64,000 nucleotides of DNA from Escherichia phage T4. The translations under genes and the position numbers were made by a program. Below the pieces are notes generated by a model. That model was not told the DNA's origin. It saw only the letters and a list, made by a program, of their open reading frames with translations, and did no database searches. The stretch lies in the sequence record MZ375356.1, one strand, 5' to 3'. Of this stretch, positions 4,641 to 56,015 are shown one piece after another (within the stretch, counting starts at the first letter, position 1; each line of letters begins with the position of its first letter).

Positions 4641-4842
4641 TTTTCACCTTTTTATTGATATGTCTTTTTCTATAGACAACTTTTTCTCGAGTTTCAAATT
4701 TATTCTTAGCAGTCATAGCTCGAGCCCATAATACAGCCACTTCTTTTGCCTGTAAGTTTAATTCACGAGCAATTTCAATGAATGACTTTCCAGACTCATG
4801 AAGAGTAAACACCACAACCTCAGTTCTCATAATCAATCTCAT
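4627..4842 (-). CDS. 24.3: hypothetical protein 24.3
   Basis: 71-aa ORF, position. Confidence 0.6.
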   Translation of the reverse strand: MRLIMRTEVVVFTLHESGKSFIEIARELNLQAKEVAVLWARAMTAKNKFETREKVVYRKRHINKKVKNGTV

Positions 4843-4894: not shown

Positions 4895-4927
4895 CTTTCA
4901 AAATGAAGAAAGGGGCCGAAGCCCCTT
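4895..4927 (-). terminator. hairpin terminator downstream of hoc remnant
   Basis: GGGGC-TTCG-GCCCC on minus strand followed by T-rich run. Confidence 0.6.
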
Positions 4928-5481
4928 ATGATAATGATACTTCATTAGAAGTAACGCTTAGTGCATCATAATCTGTCGCGGTTACTTGGGCTACGCATTT
5001 AATTCTTTTTACTCCACTTGTAGTTGGAGTATAGCTAAATGTAGAGTTAGTTTCTCCACCAACTTGTGAATCATCTACATACCACTGATACGTAGCAGAT
5101 GCTCCATCAGGTTGAGAAGCTAAGGCAGCAGTAAATTGAACTGGGGTTCCAATCACTCCAGCCGCAGGACTAGCAGGAGTTACGGCTAAGGTAGTCGTCT
5201 GTGTCTTATTTTTAACTGTGATAGTTGTTGTCGCTTCAGCCGTTTCCGGGCCTCCTTCAGAAAGTGTATTTGTTGCAACTACTTTAATAGTCTTTTGACC
5301 GGCAGGTCCTTTTAGCATAACTAAAAGTTGCTTCAGCTCCATCTTGTGGAACATTATCTACGCTCCAAGCATATGTAATAGTTCCGCCTCCAGTTTGACC
5401 ACTGGGTGTAGCAGTAAACTGCTTAGTTTCATCAATAACCCCTGTAGGTGTTTTAGGAGTTATATCAACTGTAAAAGTCAT
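4926..5481 (-). pseudogene. hoc: Hoc outer capsid protein, frameshifted after ~55 codons and lacking C-terminal half
   Basis: ORF 5284..5481 begins MTFTVDITPKTPTGVIDETKQFTATPSGQ then changes frame; ORF 4926..5354 continues with Ig-like domain sequence and stops 83 nt before 24.3; total ~190 codons versus 376 aa remembered for T4 Hoc. Confidence 0.8.
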
Positions 5482-43935: not shown

Positions 43936-44853
43936 TCAAAATTCATTAATGCTATTAGTTAATTTAGAAAGACCCGCTTTTACAAAATATGAATAAATTT
44001 TGCCACGCGGTGGTAATTTATATGAATTATAGTAATTCACAATGTTTGAAGCAATATTATCAGGAATATAATCAAAATCAATTAGAACTAAATTTTCTTT
44101 ATAACGATTATATTCAGATTCAGTGAGAAGCACCTTAGCTTGCTCACGGTCATTAGCAATAGCTTCAACGATTGAAGTTTTCATTGAAGGAGTTCGTTCA
44201 CCTTCAACTCTGGTAAACCAAAAGTCAGATCGTACTTTAACTGAAGCAACGTTATCCTTTTTGTCGCCTTTAAGGATTTTAGTCATACAGTCAATTTCAG
44301 CAGAACCGCTTTTAATTTTAACCCATTTCTTATGCATCGGAGACCATTGCTTAACATTTGGATATTTGTGAAGCTGAGTAAAGTCACCATCTGACGAAAT
44401 GATTAAAATCTTATGTCCTTCTAAAGAGAACTTTTTAACAAGAACAGCAATGTGGTCATCTGCTTCATACTTATCAATATCCATAACAATGTATGGCATA
44501 TAAGCTTTCAATTCATCTATAACTTTATGGCTGGATTCAAAATAACCTTCCCAGTCCCAAGTAGATTCTTCTCGTGCTTTTCCACGGTTTTTCTTATAAT
44601 AATAAGCGAAATCACGACGCCAATATCCAGATTTCGCGTTATCAATACACAGTACAATTTTAGTGTATCCAAGCGTTTTTGCTTTTTTGACATTAAACTT
44701 AATTGAGTTCAATATCAAATGACGAACCATTGATAAATTAATTTTTTCTTTATCTGGGAAGTTTACCAAAGCAGTTGAAAGCGCAATTTGACTAAAGTCA
44801 ATTAAGCAGATTCCTTCTTTGTAATCTTCATCCAACATCATTTCTAAATCCAT
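43936..44853 (-). CDS. rnh: RNase H (5'-3' exonuclease / flap endonuclease)
   Basis: 305-aa protein from MDLEMMLDEDYKEG...; listed ORF extends 5 codons upstream. Confidence 0.9.
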   Translation of the reverse strand: MDLEMMLDEDYKEGICLIDFSQIALSTALVNFPDKEKINLSMVRHLILNSIKFNVKKAKTLGYTKIVLCIDNAKSGYWRRDFAYYYKKNRGKAREESTWDWEGYFESSHKVIDELKAYMPYIVMDIDKYEADDHIAVLVKKFSLEGHKILIISSDGDFTQLHKYPNVKQWSPMHKKWVKIKSGSAEIDCMTKILKGDKKDNVASVKVRSDFWFTRVEGERTPSMKTSIVEAIANDREQAKVLLTESEYNRYKENLVLIDFDYIPDNIASNIVNYYNSYKLPPRGKIYSYFVKAGLSKLTNSINEF

Positions 44854-44913
44854 ATGAACCTCGTTCAATTAGTGAGATTTCTATTATACCATCCAAATCT
44901 TAAAGTAAACAAG

Positions 44914-44921
44914 TATAAATA
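44914..44921 (+). promoter_or_regulatory. late promoter TATAAATA for gene 34
   Basis: exact TATAAATA 34 nt upstream of ATG 44956. Confidence 0.7.
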
Positions 44922-44955
44922 CTTATTATTGAAAACACAATAGGAGCCCGGGAGA

Positions 44956-47900
44956 ATGGCCGAGATTAAAAGAAAGTTCAGAGCAGAAGATGGTCTGGAC
45001 GCAGGTGGTGATAAAATAATCAACGTAGCTTTAGCTGATCGTACCGTAGGAACTGACGGTGTTAACGTTGATTACTTAATTCAAGAAAACACAGTTCAAC
45101 AGTATGATCCAACTCGTGGATATTTAAAAGATTTTGTAATCATTTATGATAACCGCTTTTGGGCTGCTATAAATGATATTCCAAAACCAGCAGGAGCTTT
45201 TAATAGCGGACGCTGGAGAGCATTACGTACCGATGCTAACTGGATTACGGTTTCATCTGGTTCATATCAATTAAAATCTGGTGAAGCAATTTCGGTTAAC
45301 ACCGCAGCTGGAAATGACATCACGTTTACTTTACCATCTTCTCCAATTGATGGTGATACTATCGTTCTCCAAGATATTGGAGGAAAACCTGGAGTTAACC
45401 AAGTTTTAATTGTAGCTCCAGTACAAAGTATTGTAAACTTTAGAGGTGAACAGGTACGTTCAGTACTAATGACTCATCCAAAGTCACAGCTAGTTTTAAT
45501 TTTTAGTAATCGTCTGTGGCAAATGTATGTTGCTGATTATAGTAGAGAAGCTATAGTTGTAACACCAGCGAATACTTATCAAGCGCAATCCAACGATTTT
45601 ATCGTACGTAGATTTACTTCTGCTGCACCAATTAATGTCAAACTTCCAAGATTTGCTAATCATGGCGATATTATTAATTTCGTCGATTTAGATAAACTAA
45701 ATCCGCTTTATCATACAATTGTTACTACATACGATGAAACGACTTCAGTACAAGAAGTTGGAACTCATTCCATTGAAGGCCGTACATCGATTGACGGTTT
45801 CTTGATGTTTGATGATAATGAGAAATTATGGAGACTGTTTGACGGGGATAGTAAAGCGCGTTTACGTATCATAACGACTAATTCAAACATTCGTCCAAAT
45901 GAAGAAGTTATGGTATTTGGTGCGAATAACGGAACAACTCAAACAATTGAGCTTAAGCTTCCAACTAATATTTCTGTTGGTGATACTGTTAAAATTTCCA
46001 TGAATTACATGAGAAAAGGACAAACAGTTAAAATCAAAGCTGCTGATGAAGATAAAATTGCTTCTTCAGTTCAATTGCTGCAATTCCCAAAACGCTCAGA
46101 ATATCCACCTGAAGCTGAATGGGTTACAGTTCAAGAATTAGTTTTTAACGGTGAAACTAATTATGTTCCAGTTTTGGAGCTTGCTTACATAGAAGATTCT
46201 GATGGAAAATATTGGGTTGTACAGCAAAACGTTCCAACTGTAGAAAGAGTAGATTCTTTAAATGATTCTACTAGAGCAAGATTAGGCGTAATTGCTTTAG
46301 CTACACAAGCTCAAGCTAATGTCGATTTAGAAAATTCTCCACAAAAAGAATTAGCAATTACTCCAGAAACGTTAGCTAATCGTACTGCTACAGAAACTCG
46401 CAGAGGTATTGCAAGAATAGCAACTACTGCTCAAGTGAATCAGAACACCACATTCTCTTTTGCTGATGATATTATCATCACTCCTAAAAAGCTGAATGAA
46501 AGAACTGCTACAGAAACTCGTAGAGGTGTCGCAGAAATTGCTACGCAGCAAGAAACTAATGCAGGAACCGATGATACTACAATCATCACTCCTAAAAAGC
46601 TTCAAGCTCGTCAAGGTTCTGAATCATTATCTGGTATTGTAACCTTTGTATCTACTGCAGGTGCTACTCCAGCTTCTAGCCGTGAATTAAATGGTACGAA
46701 TGTTTATAATAAAAACACTGATAATTTAGTTGTTTCACCTAAAGCTTTGGATCAGTATAAAGCTACTCCAACACAGCAAGGTGCAGTAATTTTAGCAGTT
46801 GAAAGTGAAGTAATTGCTGGACAAAGTCAGCAAGGATGGGCAAATGCTGTTGTAACGCCAGAAACGTTACATAAAAAGACATCAACTGATGGAAGAATTG
46901 GTTTAATTGAAATTGCTACGCAAAGTGAAGTTAATACAGGAACTGATTATACTCGTGCAGTCACTCCTAAAACTTTAAATGACCGTAGAGCAACTGAAAG
47001 TTTAAGTGGTATAGCTGAAATTGCTACACAAGTTGAATTCGACGCAGGCGTCGACGATACTCGTATCTCTACACCATTAAAAATTAAAACCAGATTTAAT
47101 AGTACTGATCGTACTTCTGTTGTTGCTCTATCTGGATTAGTTGAATCAGGAACTCTCTGGGACCATTATACACTTAATATTCTTGAAGCAAATGAGACAC
47201 AACGTGGTACACTTCGTGTAGCTACGCAGGTCGAAGCTGCTGCGGGAACATTAGATAATGTTTTAATAACTCCTAAAAAGCTTTTAGGTACTAAATCTAC
47301 TGAAGCGCAAGAGGGTGTTATTAAAGTTGCAACTCAGTCTGAAACTGTGACTGGAACGTCAGCAAATACTGCTGTATCTCCAAAAAATTTAAAATGGATT
47401 GCGCAGAGTGAACCTACTTGGGCAGCTACTACTGCAATAAGAGGTTTTGTTAAAACTTCATCTGGTTCAATTACATTCGTTGGTAATGATACAGTCGGTT
47501 CTACCCAAGATTTAGAACTGTATGAGAAAAATAGCTATGCGGTATCACCATATGAATTAAACCGTGTATTAGCAAATTATTTGCCACTAAAAGCAAAAGC
47601 TGCTGATACAAATTTATTGGATGGTCTAGATTCATCTCAGTTCATTCGTAGGGATATTGCACAGACGGTTAATGGTTCACTAACCTTAACCCAACAAACG
47701 AATCTGAGTGCCCCTCTTGTATCATCTAGTACTGGTGAATTTGGTGGTTCATTGGCCGCTAATAGAACATTTACCATCCGTAATACAGGAGCCCCGACTA
47801 GTATCGTTTTCGAAAAAGGTCCTGCATCCGGGGCAAATCCTGCACAGTCAATGAGTATTCGTGTATGGGGTAACCAATTTGGCGGCGGTAGTGATACGAC

Positions 47901-48822
47901 CCGTTCGACAGTGTTTGAAGTTGGCGATGACACATCTCATCACTTTTATTCTCAACGTAATAAAGACGGTATAGCGTTTAACATTAATGGTACTGTAATG
48001 CCAATAAACATTAATGCTTCCGGTTTGATGAATGTGAATGGCACTGCAACATTCGGTCGTTCAGTTACAGCCAATGGTGAATTCATCAGCAAGTCTGCAA
48101 ATGCTTTTAGAGCAATAAACGGTGATTACGGATTCTTTATTCGTAATGATGCCTCTAATACCTATTTTTTGCTCACTGCAGCCGGTGATCAGACTGGTGG
48201 TTTTAATGGATTACGCCCATTATTAATTAATAATCAATCCGGTCAGATTACAATTGGTGAAGGCTTAATCATTGCCAAAGGTGTTACTATAAATTCAGGC
48301 GGTTTAACTGTTAACTCGAGAATTCGTTCTCAGGGTACTAAAACATCTGATTTATATACCCGTGCGCCAACATCTGATACTGTAGGATTCTGGTCAATCG
48401 ATATTAATGATTCAGCCACTTATAACCAGTTCCCGGGTTATTTTAAAATGGTTGAAAAAACTAATGAAGTGACTGGGCTTCTATACTTAGAACGTGGCGA
48501 AGAAGTTAAATCTCCTGGTACACTGACTCAGTTTGGTAACACACTTGATTCGCTTTACCAAGATTGGATTACTTATCCAACGACGCCAGAAGCGCGTACC
48601 ACTCGCTGGACACGTACATGGCAGAAAACCAAAAACTCTTGGTCAAGTTTTGTTCAGGTATTTGACGGAGGTAACCCTCCTCAACCATCTGATATCGGTG
48701 CTTTACCATCTGATAATGCTACAATGGGGAATCTTACTATTCGTGATTTCTTGCGAATTGGTAATGTTCGCATTGTTCCTGACCCAGTGAATAAAACGGT
48801 TAAATTTGAATGGGTTGAATAA
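44956..48822 (+). CDS. 34: long tail fibre proximal subunit gp34
   Basis: 1288-aa ORF with internal tandem ~30-aa repeats (RRGIARIATTAQVNQ, RRGVAEIATQQETNAG, RGTLRVATQVEAAAG). Confidence 0.95.
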   Translation: MAEIKRKFRAEDGLDAGGDKIINVALADRTVGTDGVNVDYLIQENTVQQYDPTRGYLKDFVIIYDNRFWAAINDIPKPAGAFNSGRWRALRTDANWITVSSGSYQLKSGEAISVNTAAGNDITFTLPSSPIDGDTIVLQDIGGKPGVNQVLIVAPVQSIVNFRGEQVRSVLMTHPKSQLVLIFSNRLWQMYVADYSREAIVVTPANTYQAQSNDFIVRRFTSAAPINVKLPRFANHGDIINFVDLDKLNPLYHTIVTTYDETTSVQEVGTHSIEGRTSIDGFLMFDDNEKLWRLFDGDSKARLRIITTNSNIRPNEEVMVFGANNGTTQTIELKLPTNISVGDTVKISMNYMRKGQTVKIKAADEDKIASSVQLLQFPKRSEYPPEAEWVTVQELVFNGETNYVPVLELAYIEDSDGKYWVVQQNVPTVERVDSLNDSTRARLGVIALATQAQANVDLENSPQKELAITPETLANRTATETRRGIARIATTAQVNQNTTFSFADDIIITPKKLNERTATETRRGVAEIATQQETNAGTDDTTIITPKKLQARQGSESLSGIVTFVSTAGATPASSRELNGTNVYNKNTDNLVVSPKALDQYKATPTQQGAVILAVESEVIAGQSQQGWANAVVTPETLHKKTSTDGRIGLIEIATQSEVNTGTDYTRAVTPKTLNDRRATESLSGIAEIATQVEFDAGVDDTRISTPLKIKTRFNSTDRTSVVALSGLVESGTLWDHYTLNILEANETQRGTLRVATQVEAAAGTLDNVLITPKKLLGTKSTEAQEGVIKVATQSETVTGTSANTAVSPKNLKWIAQSEPTWAATTAIRGFVKTSSGSITFVGNDTVGSTQDLELYEKNSYAVSPYELNRVLANYLPLKAKAADTNLLDGLDSSQFIRRDIAQTVNGSLTLTQQTNLSAPLVSSSTGEFGGSLAANRTFTIRNTGAPTSIVFEKGPASGANPAQSMSIRVWGNQFGGGSDTTRSTVFEVGDDTSHHFYSQRNKDGIAFNINGTVMPININASGLMNVNGTATFGRSVTANGEFISKSANAFRAINGDYGFFIRNDASNTYFLLTAAGDQTGGFNGLRPLLINNQSGQITIGEGLIIAKGVTINSGGLTVNSRIRSQGTKTSDLYTRAPTSDTVGFWSIDINDSATYNQFPGYFKMVEKTNEVTGLLYLERGEEVKSPGTLTQFGNTLDSLYQDWITYPTTPEARTTRWTRTWQKTKNSWSSFVQVFDGGNPPQPSDIGALPSDNATMGNLTIRDFLRIGNVRIVPDPVNKTVKFEWVE

Positions 48823-48830
48823 GAGGTATT

Positions 48831-49949
48831 ATGGAAAAATTTATGGCAGAGTTTGGACAAGGATATGTCCAAACGCCATTTTTATCGGAAAGTAATTCAG
48901 TAAGATATAAAATAAGTATAGCGGGTTCTTGCCCGCTTTCTACAGCAGGACCATCATATGTTAAATTTCAGGATAATCCTGTAGGAAGTCAAACATTTAG
49001 CGCAGGCCTTCATTTAAGAGTTTTTGACCCTTCCACCGGAGCATTAGTTGATAGTAAGTCATATGCTTTTTCGACTTCAAATGATACTACATCAGCTGCT
49101 TTTGTTAGTTTCATGAATTCTTTGACGAATAATCGAATTGTTGCTATATTAACTAGTGGAAAGGTTAATTTTCCTCCTGAAGTAGTATCTTGGTTAAGAA
49201 CCGCCGGAACGTCTGCCTTTCCATCTGATTCTATATTGTCAAGATTTGACGTATCATATGCTGCTTTTTATACTTCTTCTAAAAGAGCTATCGCATTAGA
49301 GCATGTTAAACTGAGTAATAGAAAAAGCACAGATGATTATCAAACTATTTTAGATGTTGTATTTGACAGTTTAGAAGATGTAGGAGCTACCGGGTTTCCA
49401 AGAAGAACGTATGAAAGTGTTGAGCAATTCATGTCGGCAGTTGGTGGAACTAATAACGAAATTGCGAGATTGCCAACTTCAGCTGCTATAAGTAAATTAT
49501 CTGATTATAATTTAATTCCTGGAGTTGTTCTTTATCTTAAAGCTCAGTTATATGCTGATGCTGATTTACTTGCTCTTGGAACTACAAATATATCTATCCG
49601 TTTTTATAATGCATCTAACGGATATATTTCTTCAACACAAGCTGAATTTACTGGGCAAGCTGGGTCATGGGAATTAAAGGAAGATTATGTAGTTGTTCCA
49701 GAAAACGCAGTAGGATTTACGATATACGCACAGAGAACTGCACAAGCTGGCCAAGGTGGCATGAGAAATTTAAGCTTTTCTGAAGTATCAAGAAATGGCG
49801 GCATTTCGAAACCTGCTGAATTTGGCGTCAATGGTATTCGTGTTAATTATATCTGCGAATCCGCTTCACCTCCGGATATAATGGTACTTCCTACGCAAGC
49901 ATCGTCTAAAACTGGTAAAGTGTTTGGGCAAGAATTTAGAGAAGTTTAA
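48831..49949 (+). CDS. 35: long tail fibre hinge protein gp35
   Basis: 372-aa ORF. Confidence 0.9.
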   Translation: MEKFMAEFGQGYVQTPFLSESNSVRYKISIAGSCPLSTAGPSYVKFQDNPVGSQTFSAGLHLRVFDPSTGALVDSKSYAFSTSNDTTSAAFVSFMNSLTNNRIVAILTSGKVNFPPEVVSWLRTAGTSAFPSDSILSRFDVSYAAFYTSSKRAIALEHVKLSNRKSTDDYQTILDVVFDSLEDVGATGFPRRTYESVEQFMSAVGGTNNEIARLPTSAAISKLSDYNLIPGVVLYLKAQLYADADLLALGTTNISIRFYNASNGYISSTQAEFTGQAGSWELKEDYVVVPENAVGFTIYAQRTAQAGQGGMRNLSFSEVSRNGGISKPAEFGVNGIRVNYICESASPPDIMVLPTQASSKTGKVFGQEFREV

Positions 49950-49954
49950 ATTGA

Positions 49955-49980
49955 GGGAGCCTTCGGGTTCCCTTTTTCTT
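49955..49980 (+). terminator. hairpin terminator after gene 35
   Basis: GGGAGCC-TTCG-GGTTCCC followed by TTTTT. Confidence 0.7.
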
Positions 49981-49988
49981 TATAAATA
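49981..49988 (+). promoter_or_regulatory. late promoter TATAAATA for gene 36
   Basis: exact TATAAATA 23 nt upstream of ATG 50012. Confidence 0.7.
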
Positions 49989-50011
49989 CTATTAAAATAA
50001 AGGGGCATACA

Positions 50012-50677
50012 ATGGCTGATTTAAAAGTAGGTTCAACAACTGGAGGCTCTGTCATTTGGCATCAAGGAAATTTTCCATTGAATCCAGCCGGTGACGATGT
50101 ACTCTATAAATCATTTAAAATATATTCAGAATATAACAAACCACAAGCTGCTGATAACGATTTCGTTTCTAAAGCTAATGGTGGTACTTATGCATCAAAG
50201 GTAACATTTAACGCTGGCATTCAAGTCCCATATGCTCCAAACATCATGAGCCCATGCGGGATTTATGGGGGTAACGGTGATGGTGCTACTTTTGATAAAG
50301 CAAATATCGATATTGTTTCATGGTATGGCGTAGGATTTAAATCGTCATTTGGTTCAACAGGCCGAACTGTTGTAATTAATACACGCAATGGTGATATTAA
50401 CACAAAAGGTGTTGTGTCGGCAGCTGGTCAAGTAAGAAGTGGTGCGGCTGCTCCTATAGCAGCGAATGACCTTACTAGAAAGGACTATGTTGATGGAGCA
50501 ATAAATACTGTTACTGCAAATGCAAACTCTAGGGTGCTACGGTCTGGTGACACCATGACAGGTAATTTAACAGCGCTAAACTTTTTCTCGCAGAATCCTG
50601 CATCTCAACCCTCACACGTTCCACGATTTGACCAAATCGTAATTAAGGATTCTGTTCAAGATTTCGGCTATTATTAA
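50012..50677 (+). CDS. 36: long tail fibre distal connector gp36
   Basis: 221-aa ORF. Confidence 0.9.
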
Positions 50678-50685
50678 GAGGACTT

Positions 50686-53600
50686 ATGGCTACTTTAAAA
50701 CAAATACAATTTAAAAGAAGCAAAATCGCAGGAACACGTCCTGCTGCTTCAGTATTAGCCGAAGGTGAATTGGCTATAAACTTAAAAGATAGAACAATTT
50801 TTACTAAAGATGATTCAGGAAATATCATCGATCTAGGTTTTGCTAAAGGCGGGCAAGTTGATGGCAACGTTACTATTAACGGACTTTTGAGATTAAATGG
50901 CGATTATGTACAAACAGGTGGAATGACTGTAAACGGACCCATTGGTTCTACTGATGGCGTCACTGCAAAAATTTTCAGATCTACACAGGGTTCATTTTAT
51001 GCAAGAGCAACAAACGATACTTCAAATGCCCATTTATGGTTTGAAAATGCCGATGGCACTGAACGTGGCGTTATATATGCTCGCCCTCAAACTACAACTG
51101 ACGGTGAAATACGCCTTAGGGTTAGACAAGGAACAGGAAGCACTGCCAACAGTGAATTCTATTTCCGCTCTATAAATGGAGGCGAATTTCAGGCTAACCG
51201 TATTTTAGCATCAGATTCGTTAGTAACAAAACGCATTGCGGTTGATACCGTTATTCATGATGCCAAAGCATTTGGACAATATGATTCTCACTCTTTGGTT
51301 AATTATGTTTATCCTGGAACCGGTGAAACAAATGGTGTAAACTATCTTCGTAAAGTTCGCGCTAAGTCCGGTGGTACAATTTATCATGAAATTGTTACTG
51401 CACAAACAGGCCTGGCTGATGAAGTTTCTTGGTGGTCTGGTGATACACCAGTATTTAAACTATACGGTATTCGTGACGATGGCAGAATGATTATCCGTAA
51501 TAGCCTTGCATTAGGTACATTCACTACAAATTTCCCGTCTAGTGATTATGGCAACGTCGGTGTAATGGGCGATAAGTATCTTGTTCTCGGCGACACTGTA
51601 ACTGGCTTGTCATACAAAAAAACTGGTGTATTTGATCTAGTTGGCGGTGGATATTCTGTTGCTTCTATTACTCCTGACAGTTTCCGTAGTACTCGTAAAG
51701 GTATATTTGGTCGTTCTGAGGACCAAGGCGCAACTTGGATAATGCCTGGTACAAATGCTGCTCTCTTGTCTGTTCAAACACAAGCTGATAATAACAATGC
51801 TGGAGACGGACAAACCCATATCGGGTACAATGCTGGCGGTAAAATGAACCACTATTTCCGTGGTACAGGTCAGATGAATATCAATACCCAACAAGGTATG
51901 GAAATTAACCCGGGTATTTTGAAATTGGTAACTGGCTCTAATAATGTACAATTTTACGCTGACGGAACTATTTCTTCCATTCAACCTATTAAATTAGATA
52001 ACGAGATATTTTTAACTAAATCTAATAATACTGCGGGTCTTAAATTTGGAGCTCCTAGCCAAGTTGATGGCACAAGGACTATCCAATGGAACGGTGGTAC
52101 TCGCGAAGGACAGAATAAAAACTATGTGATTATTAAAGCATGGGGTAACTCATTTAATGCCACTGGTGATAGATCTCGCGAAACGGTTTTCCAAGTATCA
52201 GATAGTCAAGGATATTATTTTTATGCTCATCGTAAAGCTCCAACCGGCGACGAAACTATTGGACGTATTGAAGCTCAATTTGCTGGGGATGTTTATGCTA
52301 AAGGTATTATTGCCAACGGAAATTTTAGAGTTGTTGGATCAAGCGCTTTAGCCGGCAATGTTACTATGTCTAACGGTTTGTTTGTCCAAGGTGGTTCTTC
52401 TATTACTGGACAAGTTAAAATTGGCGGAACAGCAAACGCACTGAGAATTTGGAACGCTGAATATGGTGCTATTTTCCGTCGTTCGGAAAGTAACTTTTAT
52501 ATTATTCCAACCAATCAAAATGAAGGAGAAAGTGGAGACATTCACAGCTCTTTGAGACCTGTGAGAATAGGATTAAACGATGGCATGGTTGGGTTAGGAA
52601 GAGATTCTTTTATAGTAGATCAAAATAATGCTTTAACTACGATAAACAGTAACTCTCGCATTAATGCCAACTTTAGAATGCAATTGGGGCAGTCGGCATA
52701 CATTGATGCAGAATGTACTGATGCTGTTCGCCCGGCGGGTGCAGGTTCATTTGCTTCCCAGAATAATGAAGACGTCCGTGCGCCGTTCTATATGAATATT
52801 GATAGAACTGATGCTAGTGCATATGTTCCTATTTTGAAACAACGTTATGTTCAAGGCAATGGCTGCTATTCATTAGGGACTTTAATTAATAATGGTAATT
52901 TCCGAGTTCATTACCATGGCGGCGGAGATAACGGTTCTACAGGTCCACAGACTGCTGATTTTGGATGGGAATTTATTAAAAACGGTGATTTTATTTCACC
53001 TCGCGATTTAATAGCAGGCAAAGTCAGATTTGATAGAACTGGTAATATCACTGGTGGTTCTGGTAATTTTGCTAACTTAAACAGTACAATTGAATCACTT
53101 AAAACTGATATCATGTCGAGTTACCCAATTGGTGCTCCGATTCCTTGGCCGAGTGATTCAGTTCCTGCTGGATTTGCTTTGATGGAAGGTCAGACCTTTG
53201 ATAAGTCCGCATATCCAAAGTTAGCTGTTGCATATCCTAGCGGTGTTATTCCAGATATGCGCGGGCAAACTATCAAGGGTAAACCAAGTGGTCGTGCTGT
53301 TTTGAGCGCTGAGGCAGATGGTGTTAAGGCTCATAGCCATAGTGCATCGGCTTCAAGTACTGACTTAGGTACTAAAACCACATCAAGCTTTGACTATGGT
53401 ACGAAGGGAACTAACAGTACGGGTGGACACACTCACTCTGGTAGTGGTTCTACTAGCACAAATGGTGAGCACAGCCACTACATCGAGGCATGGAGTGGTA
53501 CTGGTGTAGGTGGTAATAAGATGTCATCATATGCCGTATCACACAGGGCGGGTGGGAGTAACACTAATGCAGCAGGGAACCACAGTCACACTTTCTCTTT

Positions 53601-53766
53601 TGGGACTAGCAGTGCTGGCGACCATTCCCACTCTGTAGGTATTGGTGCTCATACCCACACGGTAGCAATTGGATCACATGGTCATACTATCACTGTAAAT
53701 AGTACAGGTAATACAGAAAACACGGTTAAAAACATTGCTTTTAACTATATCGTTCGTTTAGCATAA
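50686..53766 (+). CDS. 37: long tail fibre distal subunit gp37 (receptor binding)
   Basis: 1026-aa ORF with C-terminal His-x-His repeats ([33 protein letters not shown]). Confidence 0.95.
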
Positions 53767-53793
53767 GGAGAGGGGCTTCGGCCCCTTCTAAAT

Positions 53794-54345
53794 ATGAAAA
53801 TATATCATTATTATTTTGACACTAAAGAATTTTACAAAGAAGAAAATTACAAACCGGTTAAAGGCCTCGGTCTTCCTGCTCATTCAACAATTAAAAAACC
53901 TTTAGAACCTAAAGAAGGATACGCGGTTGTATTTGATGAACGTACTCAGGATTGGATTTATGAAGAAGACCATCGCGGAAAACGCGCATGGACTTTTAAT
54001 AAAGAAGAAATTTTTATAAGTGACATTGGAAGCCCGGTTGGTATAACTTTCGATGAGCCCGGCGAATTTGATATATGGACTGATGACGGTTGGAAAGAAG
54101 ACGAAACATATAAGCGAGTTTTAATTCGTAATAGAAAAATTGAAGAATTATATAAAGAGTTCCAAGTTTTAAATAATATGATTGAAGCTTCTGTCGCCAA
54201 TAAAAAGGAAAAATTCTATTATAAAAACCTTAAGCGGTTCTTTGCTCTTTTAGAAAAGCATGAGCATTTAGGTGGTGAATTCCCTTCATGGCCTGAAAAA
54301 GAACAGAAGCCTTGGTATAAGCGTTTATTCAAGCATTACGTATAA
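53794..54345 (+). CDS. 38: tail fibre assembly chaperone gp38
   Basis: 183-aa ORF. Confidence 0.9.
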   Translation: MKIYHYYFDTKEFYKEENYKPVKGLGLPAHSTIKKPLEPKEGYAVVFDERTQDWIYEEDHRGKRAWTFNKEEIFISDIGSPVGITFDEPGEFDIWTDDGWKEDETYKRVLIRNRKIEELYKEFQVLNNMIEASVANKKEKFYYKNLKRFFALLEKHEHLGGEFPSWPEKEQKPWYKRLFKHYV

Positions 54346-54348
54346 ATA
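54341..54348 (+). promoter_or_regulatory. late promoter TATAAATA for holin gene t
   Basis: exact TATAAATA 17 nt upstream of ATG 54366, overlapping the gene 38 stop. Confidence 0.65.
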
Positions 54349-54365
54349 TCTTAAAAGGAGGGTCT

Positions 54366-55022
54366 ATGGCAGCACCTAGAATATCATTTTCGCCCTCTGA
54401 TATTCTATTTGGTGTTCTAGATCGCTTGTTCAAAGATAACGCTACCGGGAAGGTTCTTGCTTCCCGGGTAGCTGTCGTAATTCTTTTGTTTATAATGGCG
54501 ATTGTTTGGTATAGGGGAGATAGTTTCTTTGAGTACTATAAGCAATCAAAGTATGAAACATACAGTGAAATTATTGAAAAGGAAAGAACTGCACGCTTTG
54601 AATCTGTCGCCCTGGAACAACTCCAGATAGTTCATATATCATCTGAGGCAGACTTTAGTGCGGTGTATTCTTTCCGCCCTAAAAACTTAAACTATTTTGT
54701 TGATATTATAGCATACGAAGGAAAATTACCTTCAACAATAAGTGAAAAATCACTTGGAGGATATCCTGTTGATAAAACTATGGATGAATATACAGTTCAT
54801 TTAAATGGACGTCATTATTATTCCAACTCAAAATTTGCTTTTTTACCAACTAAAAAGCCTACTCCCGAAATAAACTACATGTACAGTTGTCCATATTTTA
54901 ATTTGGATAATATCTATGCTGGAACGATAACCATGTACTGGTATAGAAATGATCATATAAGTAATGACCGCCTTGAATCAATATGTGCTCAGGCGGCCAG
55001 AATATTAGGAAGGGCTAAATAA
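54366..55022 (+). CDS. t: holin T
   Basis: 218-aa ORF with one N-proximal transmembrane segment (VAVVILLFIMAIVWY). Confidence 0.9.
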   Translation: MAAPRISFSPSDILFGVLDRLFKDNATGKVLASRVAVVILLFIMAIVWYRGDSFFEYYKQSKYETYSEIIEKERTARFESVALEQLQIVHISSEADFSAVYSFRPKNLNYFVDIIAYEGKLPSTISEKSLGGYPVDKTMDEYTVHLNGRHYYSNSKFAFLPTKKPTPEINYMYSCPYFNLDNIYAGTITMYWYRNDHISNDRLESICAQAARILGRAK

Positions 55023-55295
55023 TTATTTGTTCGTATACATCTCTAGATATCGATATACACCCTCAAAACCCTCGTTGAATTCGTCGATGAGGGTTTTCTT
55101 ATCTTCTTGAGTTAATTCAGAAACAATTTTACGGAATGAATTTTGATTTAACTTTCTACCTTCATGCGTTACTCCAATCTCATTTAGAAATGCAATAAAA
55201 TTAGCACGATTCTCAACAATATCTTCTCTGGAAAATTTAATCAAAATAGATGCAACAGTAATAATTTCACGAACTGTATCAATGTTTTTATTCAT
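55023..55295 (-). CDS. asiA: anti-sigma70 factor AsiA
   Basis: 90-aa ORF MNKNIDTVREIITVASILIKF... Confidence 0.9.
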   Translation of the reverse strand: MNKNIDTVREIITVASILIKFSREDIVENRANFIAFLNEIGVTHEGRKLNQNSFRKIVSELTQEDKKTLIDEFNEGFEGVYRYLEMYTNK

Positions 55296-55307
55296 TAACT
55301 ATACCAC

Positions 55308-55460
55308 TCAATTAGTTGACTTTGTTATAATATCATCAGACGCTTGATTTGTAAACTGGTCTGTGTAATTTTCTTCAAAAATTTTTTCTACGAATTCCTT
55401 GAACGATTCACGTTCCTGAGCTACATTATGCTCGATTACCTTTTCAAGATTATGACTCAT
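55308..55460 (-). CDS. asiA.1: small protein asiA.1 (50 aa)
   Basis: ATG overlapping arn stop; below ORF-track threshold. Confidence 0.4.
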   Translation of the reverse strand: MSHNLEKVIEHNVAQERESFKEFVEKIFEENYTDQFTNQASDDIITKSTN

Positions 55461-55735
55461 TCGAAATAATCTTCAATTTCATAATCATGGACATAAATCA
55501 TTATAGTTTTTAATACATCATCAATATTTTTTCCTGGAGCTGGAATTACGTAAAAATACCCTGCTTTTGAGAGGTCTTTATAAGTTCCAATCAAGAAATC
55601 ATTATTCTCAAGATGTAACTCTTCAACTAATTCATTGACAATTGAATGGTATAGGTTTGGCAGAAACTTATATAGCTTTTCTAGAATATCAATTTTGAAT
55701 GTATATTGAACCACGGACTGAGAATCAATAATCAT
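55457..55735 (-). CDS. arn: Arn anti-restriction (McrBC inhibitor)
   Basis: 92-aa acidic ORF, position between asiA and motA. Confidence 0.8.
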   Translation of the reverse strand: MIIDSQSVVQYTFKIDILEKLYKFLPNLYHSIVNELVEELHLENNDFLIGTYKDLSKAGYFYVIPAPGKNIDDVLKTIMIYVHDYEIEDYFE

Positions 55736-55844
55736 AGACCTTCCCCTTATGTTTCTGTTTGCGATTAGATTCTTTAAACGCTTTCTTCTTATCCTTATGA
55801 ACAGAAGCTTTATTAAAATTATGCTTTGCGACTAAATTGTTCAT
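55725..55844 (-). CDS. arn.1: small basic protein arn.1 (39 aa)
   Basis: ORF MNNLVAKHNFNKASVHKDKKK..., 3' end overlaps arn start. Confidence 0.35.
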   Translation of the reverse strand: MNNLVAKHNFNKASVHKDKKKAFKESNRKQKHKGKVYDY

Positions 55845-56015
55845 AGTGCTGAATTACCTCTCTTAAACATTTGCATGTGAATGAAAACTTTTAGCTACAC
55901 CACATTCAAATATGTTCTCTTAAATCGCGTGTATCGATATCCCATCTCAACAATAAAATGCCGTATTAGATTTTTATCTTTATCGTTTAGAGAATTAAAA
56001 TAATCAGATTTTGAA

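Follow-up and report, generated by a model that had tools for sequence, protein, structure and literature searches.

The fibrous repeats of gp34, the proximal subunit of the long tail fibre of phage T4, and the histidine-rich needle of gp37, its distal subunit, are both already described and structurally solved (PMC5537660; PDB 2xgf; PMC6957217). The gp34 protein was reported to “contain repeating sequences” even before Granell et al. 2017; three of its repeats (residues 744-776, 780-812, and 823-868) are resolved in PDB 5NXH, and a further one (552-598) was found by structure-based alignment (PMC5537660). In each unit, a tight turn at an especially conserved glycine is followed by a β-strand, an α-helix, and a variable loop, and the (S/T)-P-capped helix contributes to a three-helix bundle on the threefold axis (PMC5537660). 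The same module occurs in gp12, whose residues 182-215 superimpose on the gp34 repeats, and the long loops of gp34 (552-598 and 822-868) are possible contacts with the tail sheath in the retracted fibre (PMC5537660). The needle of gp37 coordinates seven iron atoms along its length (PMC6957217, PMC11705849), and the histidines that bind them are essential for function (PMC6957217). Searches for literature tied to OL964745, PDB 9X3R, and PDB 9F4A returned nothing useful.

The window analyzed here, a stretch of 64,000 nucleotides (MZ375356.1), comes from a laboratory mutant clone of bacteriophage T4. DNA comparison of positions 44956-53766 (8,811 nt) gave 100% identity to OL964745.1 (“Mutant Escherichia phage T4 clone T4_7t1”), and the fibre locus was 99.7 to 99.9% identical to other T4 records. 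The gene order 34-35-36-37-38-t is the same as in annotated T4 records, identifying the T4 long tail fibre locus (Tequatrovirus T4). Gene 34 (44956..48822, plus strand; open reading frame and OL964745.1 annotation) encodes a gp34 of 1,288 amino acids, versus 1,289 in wild-type T4, with matches to the Pfam families Gp34_trimer and Gp34_2nd and to the PDB entries 9x3r (full length), 5nxh (from residue 726), 5nxf, and 4uxe. It is followed by open reading frames of 372, 221, 1,026, and 183 codons. The third frame of the locus matches Phage_T4_gp36. Gene 37 (50686..53766, plus strand) encodes the distal subunit of 1,026 amino acids, as indicated by its reading frame, the annotation, Pfam (Collar at residues 816-863, plus Phage_fiber), and PDB 2xgf. 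Gene 38, for the assembly chaperone of gp37, lies at 53794..54345 (plus strand) in the T4 annotation, and its sequence is the same as in the T4 reference. The names gp34 and gp37 given in the initial annotation are thus correct, since the Pfam matches agree with the annotation of genes 34 to 38 in the T4 record of 100% DNA identity. The locus identity, the anatomy and statistics of the repeats, the distribution of conservation, and the mapping of the mutations come from the present analysis; fold and metal coordination are taken from published structures of the wild-type protein. Together, they leave us with very little doubt that the locus encodes a ten-unit fibrous repeat in gp34 and seven iron-binding HxH motifs in gp37, with specificity placed in the tip loop.

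The gp34 array comprises ten tandem units in residues 433-868 (nt 46252-47559), cut at their closing (S/T)-P-x-x-(L/I) sites, of which a motif search found ten within residues 469-868. The unit motif reads G-hydrophobic-x-x-hydrophobic-A-T ... (S/T)-P-x-x-(L/I). In a first block (46252..47085, plus strand), motif and alignment place R1 at residues 433-473 (41 aa, nt 46252-46374), R2 at 474-513 (40 aa, nt 46375-46494), R3 at 514-549 (36 aa, nt 46495-46602), R4, with its long loop, at 550-598 (49 aa, nt 46603-46749; named as 552-598 in PMC5537660), R5 at 599-638 (40 aa, nt 46750-46869), R6 at 639-674 (36 aa, nt 46870-46977), and R7 at 675-710 (36 aa, nt 46978-47085). After a nonrepeat spacer of 30 residues (711-740, nt 47086..47175), on which the repeat hidden Markov model (HMM) is silent, a second block (47176..47559, plus strand) holds R8 at 741-776 (36 aa, nt 47176-47283), R9 at 777-812 (36 aa, nt 47284-47391), and R10 at 813-868 (56 aa, nt 47392-47559), all three backed also by the crystal structure. 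In the alignment, the conserved glycine that starts the β-strand (consensus position 9) and the TP or SP that caps the N terminus of the central helix (positions 43-44 of the consensus) are present in all ten units. The initial annotation had counted at least seven copies of about 30 residues within 46380-47400. The count holds, because that interval contains eight units (R2 to R9), but the array extends past both of its ends, and the length was underestimated: the commonest unit has 36 residues (range, 36 to 56).

The repeat block is identical in sequence to that of the published gp34 repeats (PMC5537660; PDB 5NXH, 5NXF, 9X3R), which belong to the same protein, and the published boundaries 552-598, 744-776, 780-812, and 823-868 coincide with those found here. 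The window's gp34 differs from that of wild-type T4 outside the repeats only (deletion of N1006 and P1177L). Its trimeric α/β fold is taken from the published structures (PDB 5nxh/9x3r; PMC5537660). The relation to gp12 is also visible in sequence: gp12 chains (5iv5, 9f4b) match gp34 residues 599-700 and 744-851 with E values of about 1e−13, and phmmer aligned gp34 599-700 with residues 179-276 of the T4 short tail fibre gp12 (PDB 5IV5; E = 1.1e−13). At default thresholds, Pfam assigned no family to the repeat block; when the block was scanned alone at permissive thresholds, PF09089 (gp12-short_mid) matched three stretches of the array, at 27.1 bits against a cutoff of 25. PF03406 (Phage_fiber_2), which we had expected to resemble the gp34 unit, gave no match and was rejected. 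gp12 remains a separate protein, with another number of units, and is not encoded in the window. We take the shaft of the proximal half-fibre to be built of ten copies of a mixed α/β fibrous module of about 36 residues, common to gp34 and gp12. Each copy in the trimer would run from the turn at the invariant glycine through the β-strand and the short helix to the variable loop, its (S/T)-P-capped helix joining the central three-helix bundle, and the stacked modules would form a stiff rod of fixed length, presumably devoid of any receptor-binding role.

In gp37, serial G-x-H-x-H motifs follow the Collar domain. The initial annotation had placed an HxH array at about 53330..53700, where a motif search and PF03335 reveal seven HxH motifs (residues 883-1000, nt 53332..53685, plus strand): HxH 1 at 883-885 (nt 53332-53340), HxH 2 at 915-917 (53428-53436), HxH 3 at 929-931 (53470-53478), HxH 4 at 966-968 (53581-53589), HxH 5 at 980-982 (53623-53631), HxH 6 at 989-991 (53650-53658), and HxH 7 at 998-1000 (53677-53685). 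An eighth lies apart from them, at residue 742, and none of the other open reading frames of the window has two or more. PF03335 (Phage_fiber) matches gp37 in six stretches (E = 4.7e−10), and PDB 2xgf covers residues 785-1026 (E = 1.9e−150). On the basis of the published wild-type structures, the motifs bind the iron of the needle domain, whose structure is solved (PDB 2XGF; PF03335 and PF07484 Collar); this domain belongs to the same protein and carries the same seven HxH. Three tip-loop substitutions set the window's gp37 apart from that structure: N937S, I951V, and Y953H. With Y953H, the C-terminal region (from residue 880 onward) gains a fifteenth histidine, which forms no HxH. At each level of the needle, one iron ion would be held octahedrally by six histidines, since each of the three chains contributes an HxH pair. 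Such coordination would pin together the interdigitated trimer, making the HxH motifs an invariant scaffold of the needle domain.

The conservation of the gp37 tip fits such a scaffold role. A search with residues 785-1026 returned 2,025 relatives, and conservation was computed from the best 120 of these 2,025, which are mostly tail fibres of Escherichia coli prophages with 59 to 72% identity. Among these best 120, each of the 14 histidines of the HxH motifs is 93 to 100% conserved, and the blocks flanking the tip loop are nearly invariant; in residues 932-965, between HxH 3 and HxH 4 (nt 53479..53580, plus strand), the alignment has gaps and a per-column identity of mostly 0 to 20%. The suggestion that the HxH region is a plausible hot spot for host-range variation is therefore half right: the hot spot is the variable loop at 932-965, and the histidines are invariant scaffold, at least 93% conserved among the best 120 of the 2,025 relatives. 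Among the closest known systems are the C termini of side tail fibres of lambdoid E. coli prophages, which have 60 to 72% identity to residues 785-1026. Seven HxH were counted in 108 of the best 120 of the 2,025 relatives, with the variable segment in the same place as in gp37. Unlike gp37, these proteins are much shorter, belong to siphovirus prophages, and have unrelated N-terminal parts, and some of them carry PF03406 repeats. Receptor specificity (for lipopolysaccharide [LPS] or OmpC) would then reside in this hypervariable loop of about 34 residues at the extreme tip of the fibre.

Comparison of the clone with wild-type T4, for which we used the resequenced MT984581, bears on both proteins. 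The fibre locus contains seven differences from this reference: deletion of N1006 and P1177L in gp34, D232V in gp35, P189L in gp36, and, in the tip loop of gp37, N937S (53495), I951V (53536), and Y953H (53542), all three on the plus strand. None of the seven falls in the gp34 repeats or at an HxH histidine, and three are in the tip loop. Two of these three are documented to alter receptor use: N937S was reported to shift OmpC recognition, and Y953H, reported to extend LPS recognition, was fixed repeatedly during experimental evolution on E. coli C (PMC9603124; PMC7002106). The window thus shows the role of the loop directly, because three substitutions are found there and two of them are known to change receptor use. 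All six point differences in the fibre locus are nonsynonymous, an outcome with an estimated probability of about 0.18 under neutrality that is not significant on its own, and no selection is claimed from this count.

Could the periodicities be a chance or compositional pattern of fibre proteins rich in threonine, serine, and glycine? The biased composition of these proteins speaks for such a view, as does the DNA, which carries no tandem repeat. Shuffles that preserve composition never came near the values observed for the gp34 repeat or the gp37 HxH. The self dot-plot of gp34 displays a clear periodicity, with 574 windows of 12 residues scoring at least 22, compared to 110 ± 16 (maximum, 140) in 30 shuffles; 83% of the high-scoring windows fall inside residues 433-868, which make up 11.5% of the matrix area, and the most frequent offset is 36. 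Leave-one-out HMMs, a design that avoids circularity, recovered 8 of the 10 units at 9.6 to 51 bits, where the best score in 300 shuffled gp34 sequences was 5.8 bits. The two missed units, R4 and R10, both carry long loop insertions; their assignment relies on position, on the published alignment by structure, and on the conserved glycine and (S/T)-P. Shuffled versions of the whole gp37 contained 0.58 HxH on average and at most 4, and solved structures show both the gp34 repeats and the gp37 metal sites. A chance origin, which shuffles and structures alike refute, is in our judgment vanishingly improbable. Tandem Repeats Finder detected no DNA tandem repeat in positions 44000-56000, and the DNA copies of the gp34 units are 62 to 87% identical over 30 to 68 nt; the units are probably old duplications, now recognizable at the protein level only. 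The spacer at residues 711-740 gave no HMM domain even at permissive thresholds; its interpretation as a degenerate unit was rejected, as the repeat HMM does not recognize it, and the repeat model leaves it unexplained.

The initial annotation also called the gp34 array a plausible hot spot for host-range variation; on this view, it would be a recombination-prone repeat of variable copy number that tunes host range. Changes in unit number are indeed frequent among tandem protein repeats, a stretch of 20 nt recurs exactly in R2 and R3 at a distance of 108 nt (46474-46493 and 46582-46601) and could allow unequal recombination, and many fibre mutations arose in genes 34 and 35 under experimental evolution (PMC7002106). 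Against this, the gp34 changes that the same study names in its main text, at A89 and G133, are both outside the repeats, as are all the fibre mutations of the window, and gp34 forms the part of the fibre nearest the phage, well away from the receptor-binding tip of gp37 (PMC5537660). The repeat number was compared across 119 full-length gp34 homologs (46 to 96% identity), and the HMM found the same ten units in the same register in 90 of them, down to 46% identity. The others, with seven to nine units, miss only units to which the HMM responds weakly (R4 and/or R10 in the examples inspected). In the alignment of the 119 homologs, no part of gp34 is more conserved than the repeat block (residues 433-868), where the mean identity is 0.77 and the gap fraction 0.001, compared to an identity of 0.685 in the N-terminal part and of 0.60 in the C-terminal part, where gaps reach 0.078; the truly variable stretch is at about residues 900-1150, and the spacer is conserved as well (identity of 0.82 for residues 701-750). 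The array lacks the marks of a repeat that varies in copy number, namely, differing unit numbers and near-identical DNA copies. Since the block is conserved, virtually gap free, and keeps ten units in register, the gp34 repeats are not a hot spot; variation in copy number is a very improbable account of them, and the data suggest that the array is a scaffold of fixed length. For gp37, the HxH-coding segments might, besides binding metal, act as short patches of homology where recombination exchanges or duplicates the variable segments lying between them, so that the array as a whole would favor changes in host range. Reportedly, Tetart and coworkers proposed in 1998 recombination at conserved “His box” motifs. 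Strongly conserved blocks do flank a hypervariable segment at the gp37 tip, and the tip resembles the side tail fibres of E. coli prophages (60 to 70% identity), therefore implying exchange between unrelated phages. Duplications in gene 37 have, moreover, been linked to an expanded host range (Tetart et al. 1996, as cited in PMC7002106). On the other side, the structural need for metal coordination fully explains the conservation of the HxH (PMC6957217), and the changes in the window's gp37 tip are point substitutions, not exchanges. We consider a role as homology patches possible, if on the doubtful side, next to the scaffold function of the motifs.

The ten units of the gp34 array may serve as a length ruler: their number and even their loop insertions stay constant in T4-like phages with as little as 46% identity. 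One reason might be that retraction against the sheath and whiskers requires a proximal half-fibre of defined reach. A second constraint may act on the opposite strand. The known replication origin oriG (ori34), with a primer RNA opposite to gene 34, is annotated at position 152947 of AF158101, which maps to about position 47094 of the window, inside 46380-47400. Direct reading of the minus strand reveals a promoter-like site of the middle type (47165..47193), with ATTTGCTTCA at 47193-47184 followed after 13 nt by TATAAT at 47170-47165, an arrangement that fits T4 middle promoters, which combine a MotA box with a −10 element. The site goes with oriG and, where the spacer meets R8, runs antisense to the gp34 codons H737-Y738 and E744-N746. 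A scan for the sigma-70 consensus did not report it, because a promoter of the MotA type has no −35 hexamer. We compared 13 related loci from five lineages (65 to 99% protein identity): both promoter hexamers (TATAAT and TGCTTC) are identical in 13 of 13, and the gp34 codons that specify them are codon invariant in 4 of 4 cases, against a background of 20% among columns in which the amino acid is invariant and has more than one codon. This pattern is suggestive of selection on the ori34 origin within gene 34, the spacer and the start of R8 being putatively dual coding. It is not proof, because the A+T-rich codon preference of T4 also favors these codons. Taken jointly, the array as a ruler and the spacer with the start of R8 as dual coding with the ori34 promoter make up a tentative proposal, to which we would give rather less than even chances.

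Both features come from one of the best-studied phages and carry little weight as a discovery. Their value is that of a correction for scans of fibre genes, in which repeats and metal-binding motifs should be read as conserved scaffold; the determinant of host range is a short framed loop, residues 932-965 of gp37.

The coding sequence of gp34, the proximal long tail fibre protein, carries on the opposite strand a middle-type promoter-like site (ATTTGCTTCA, 13 nt, TATAAT; 47165-47193, minus strand), antisense within gene 34, which we take to be a MotA-box middle-type promoter. The site falls where the spacer of gp34 meets repeat 8, and it accompanies the replication origin annotated as oriG (ori34), whose annotated point is at ~47094. 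The two hexamers of the site (TGCTTC and TATAAT) were each identical at the DNA level across 13 related loci from five lineages. The comparison of related loci also showed that all four codons of the hexamers were invariant, against a background of 20%.

Weaker self-similarity, at spacings of ~105-130 residues, was observed in the N-terminal third of gp34. The similar segments are KDFVIIYDNRFW (aa 58-69; 45127-45162), SQLVLIFSNRLW (aa 177-188; 45484-45519), FDDNEKLWRLF (aa ~283-293; ~45802-45834), and DSDGKYWVVQ (aa ~412-421; ~46189-46218). This self-similarity in sequence hints that repeated globular domains may lie upstream of the fibrous repeats.

Relative to re-sequenced wild-type T4 (MT984581), the fibre locus showed one in-frame 3-nt deletion and six point changes, all six non-synonymous. 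The deletion (47969) removes N1006 of gp34, and the point changes are P1177L in gp34 (48482), D232V in gp35 (49525), P189L in gp36 (50577), and N937S, I951V, and Y953H in gp37, the distal long tail fibre protein (53495, 53536, and 53542, respectively). Four of the seven differences are grouped around the fibre hinge. This set of changes is consistent with a clone selected for altered adsorption.

An eighth HxH motif of gp37 (RVHYHGG; aa 742-744, 52909-52917) was found ~140 residues upstream of the seven-motif array, beyond the solved needle fragment (PDB 2xgf); one extra motif is within chance expectation. When the gp37 tip (aa 785-1026; 53038-53763) was searched against a large protein database, none of the matches listed, mostly E. 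coli prophage tail fibres, exceeded 72% identity. T4 gp37 itself, expected in this database, was absent above that identity among the matches listed.

Outside the fibre genes, ~578 nt were absent relative to the T4 reference at hoc (minus strand; ~4926-4940). The loss (reference 110188-110765) deletes the 3' part of this head decoration gene, and its junction shows an 8-nt overlap. A 33-nt insertion relative to the reference AF158101 was observed in gene 24.3 (~4686-4718), and ~32 nt are duplicated between frd.3 and gene 32 (~41005). The comparison with the old T4 reference gave 51 small gaps over 36 kb, which may come from errors in either sequence.

One copy of the gp34 unit was observed in a small fibre-like protein of each of two G+C-rich viral contigs that are not obviously T4-like, L018 (contig positions ~1570-1665) and L019 (~1615-1713). 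These single copies (e.g., MRGIAEIATQQEVDDGADDARFVTPKKL) scored 32-41 bits with the profile built from the gp34 repeat units. The module therefore exists singly beyond the T4-like gp34 proteins examined here.
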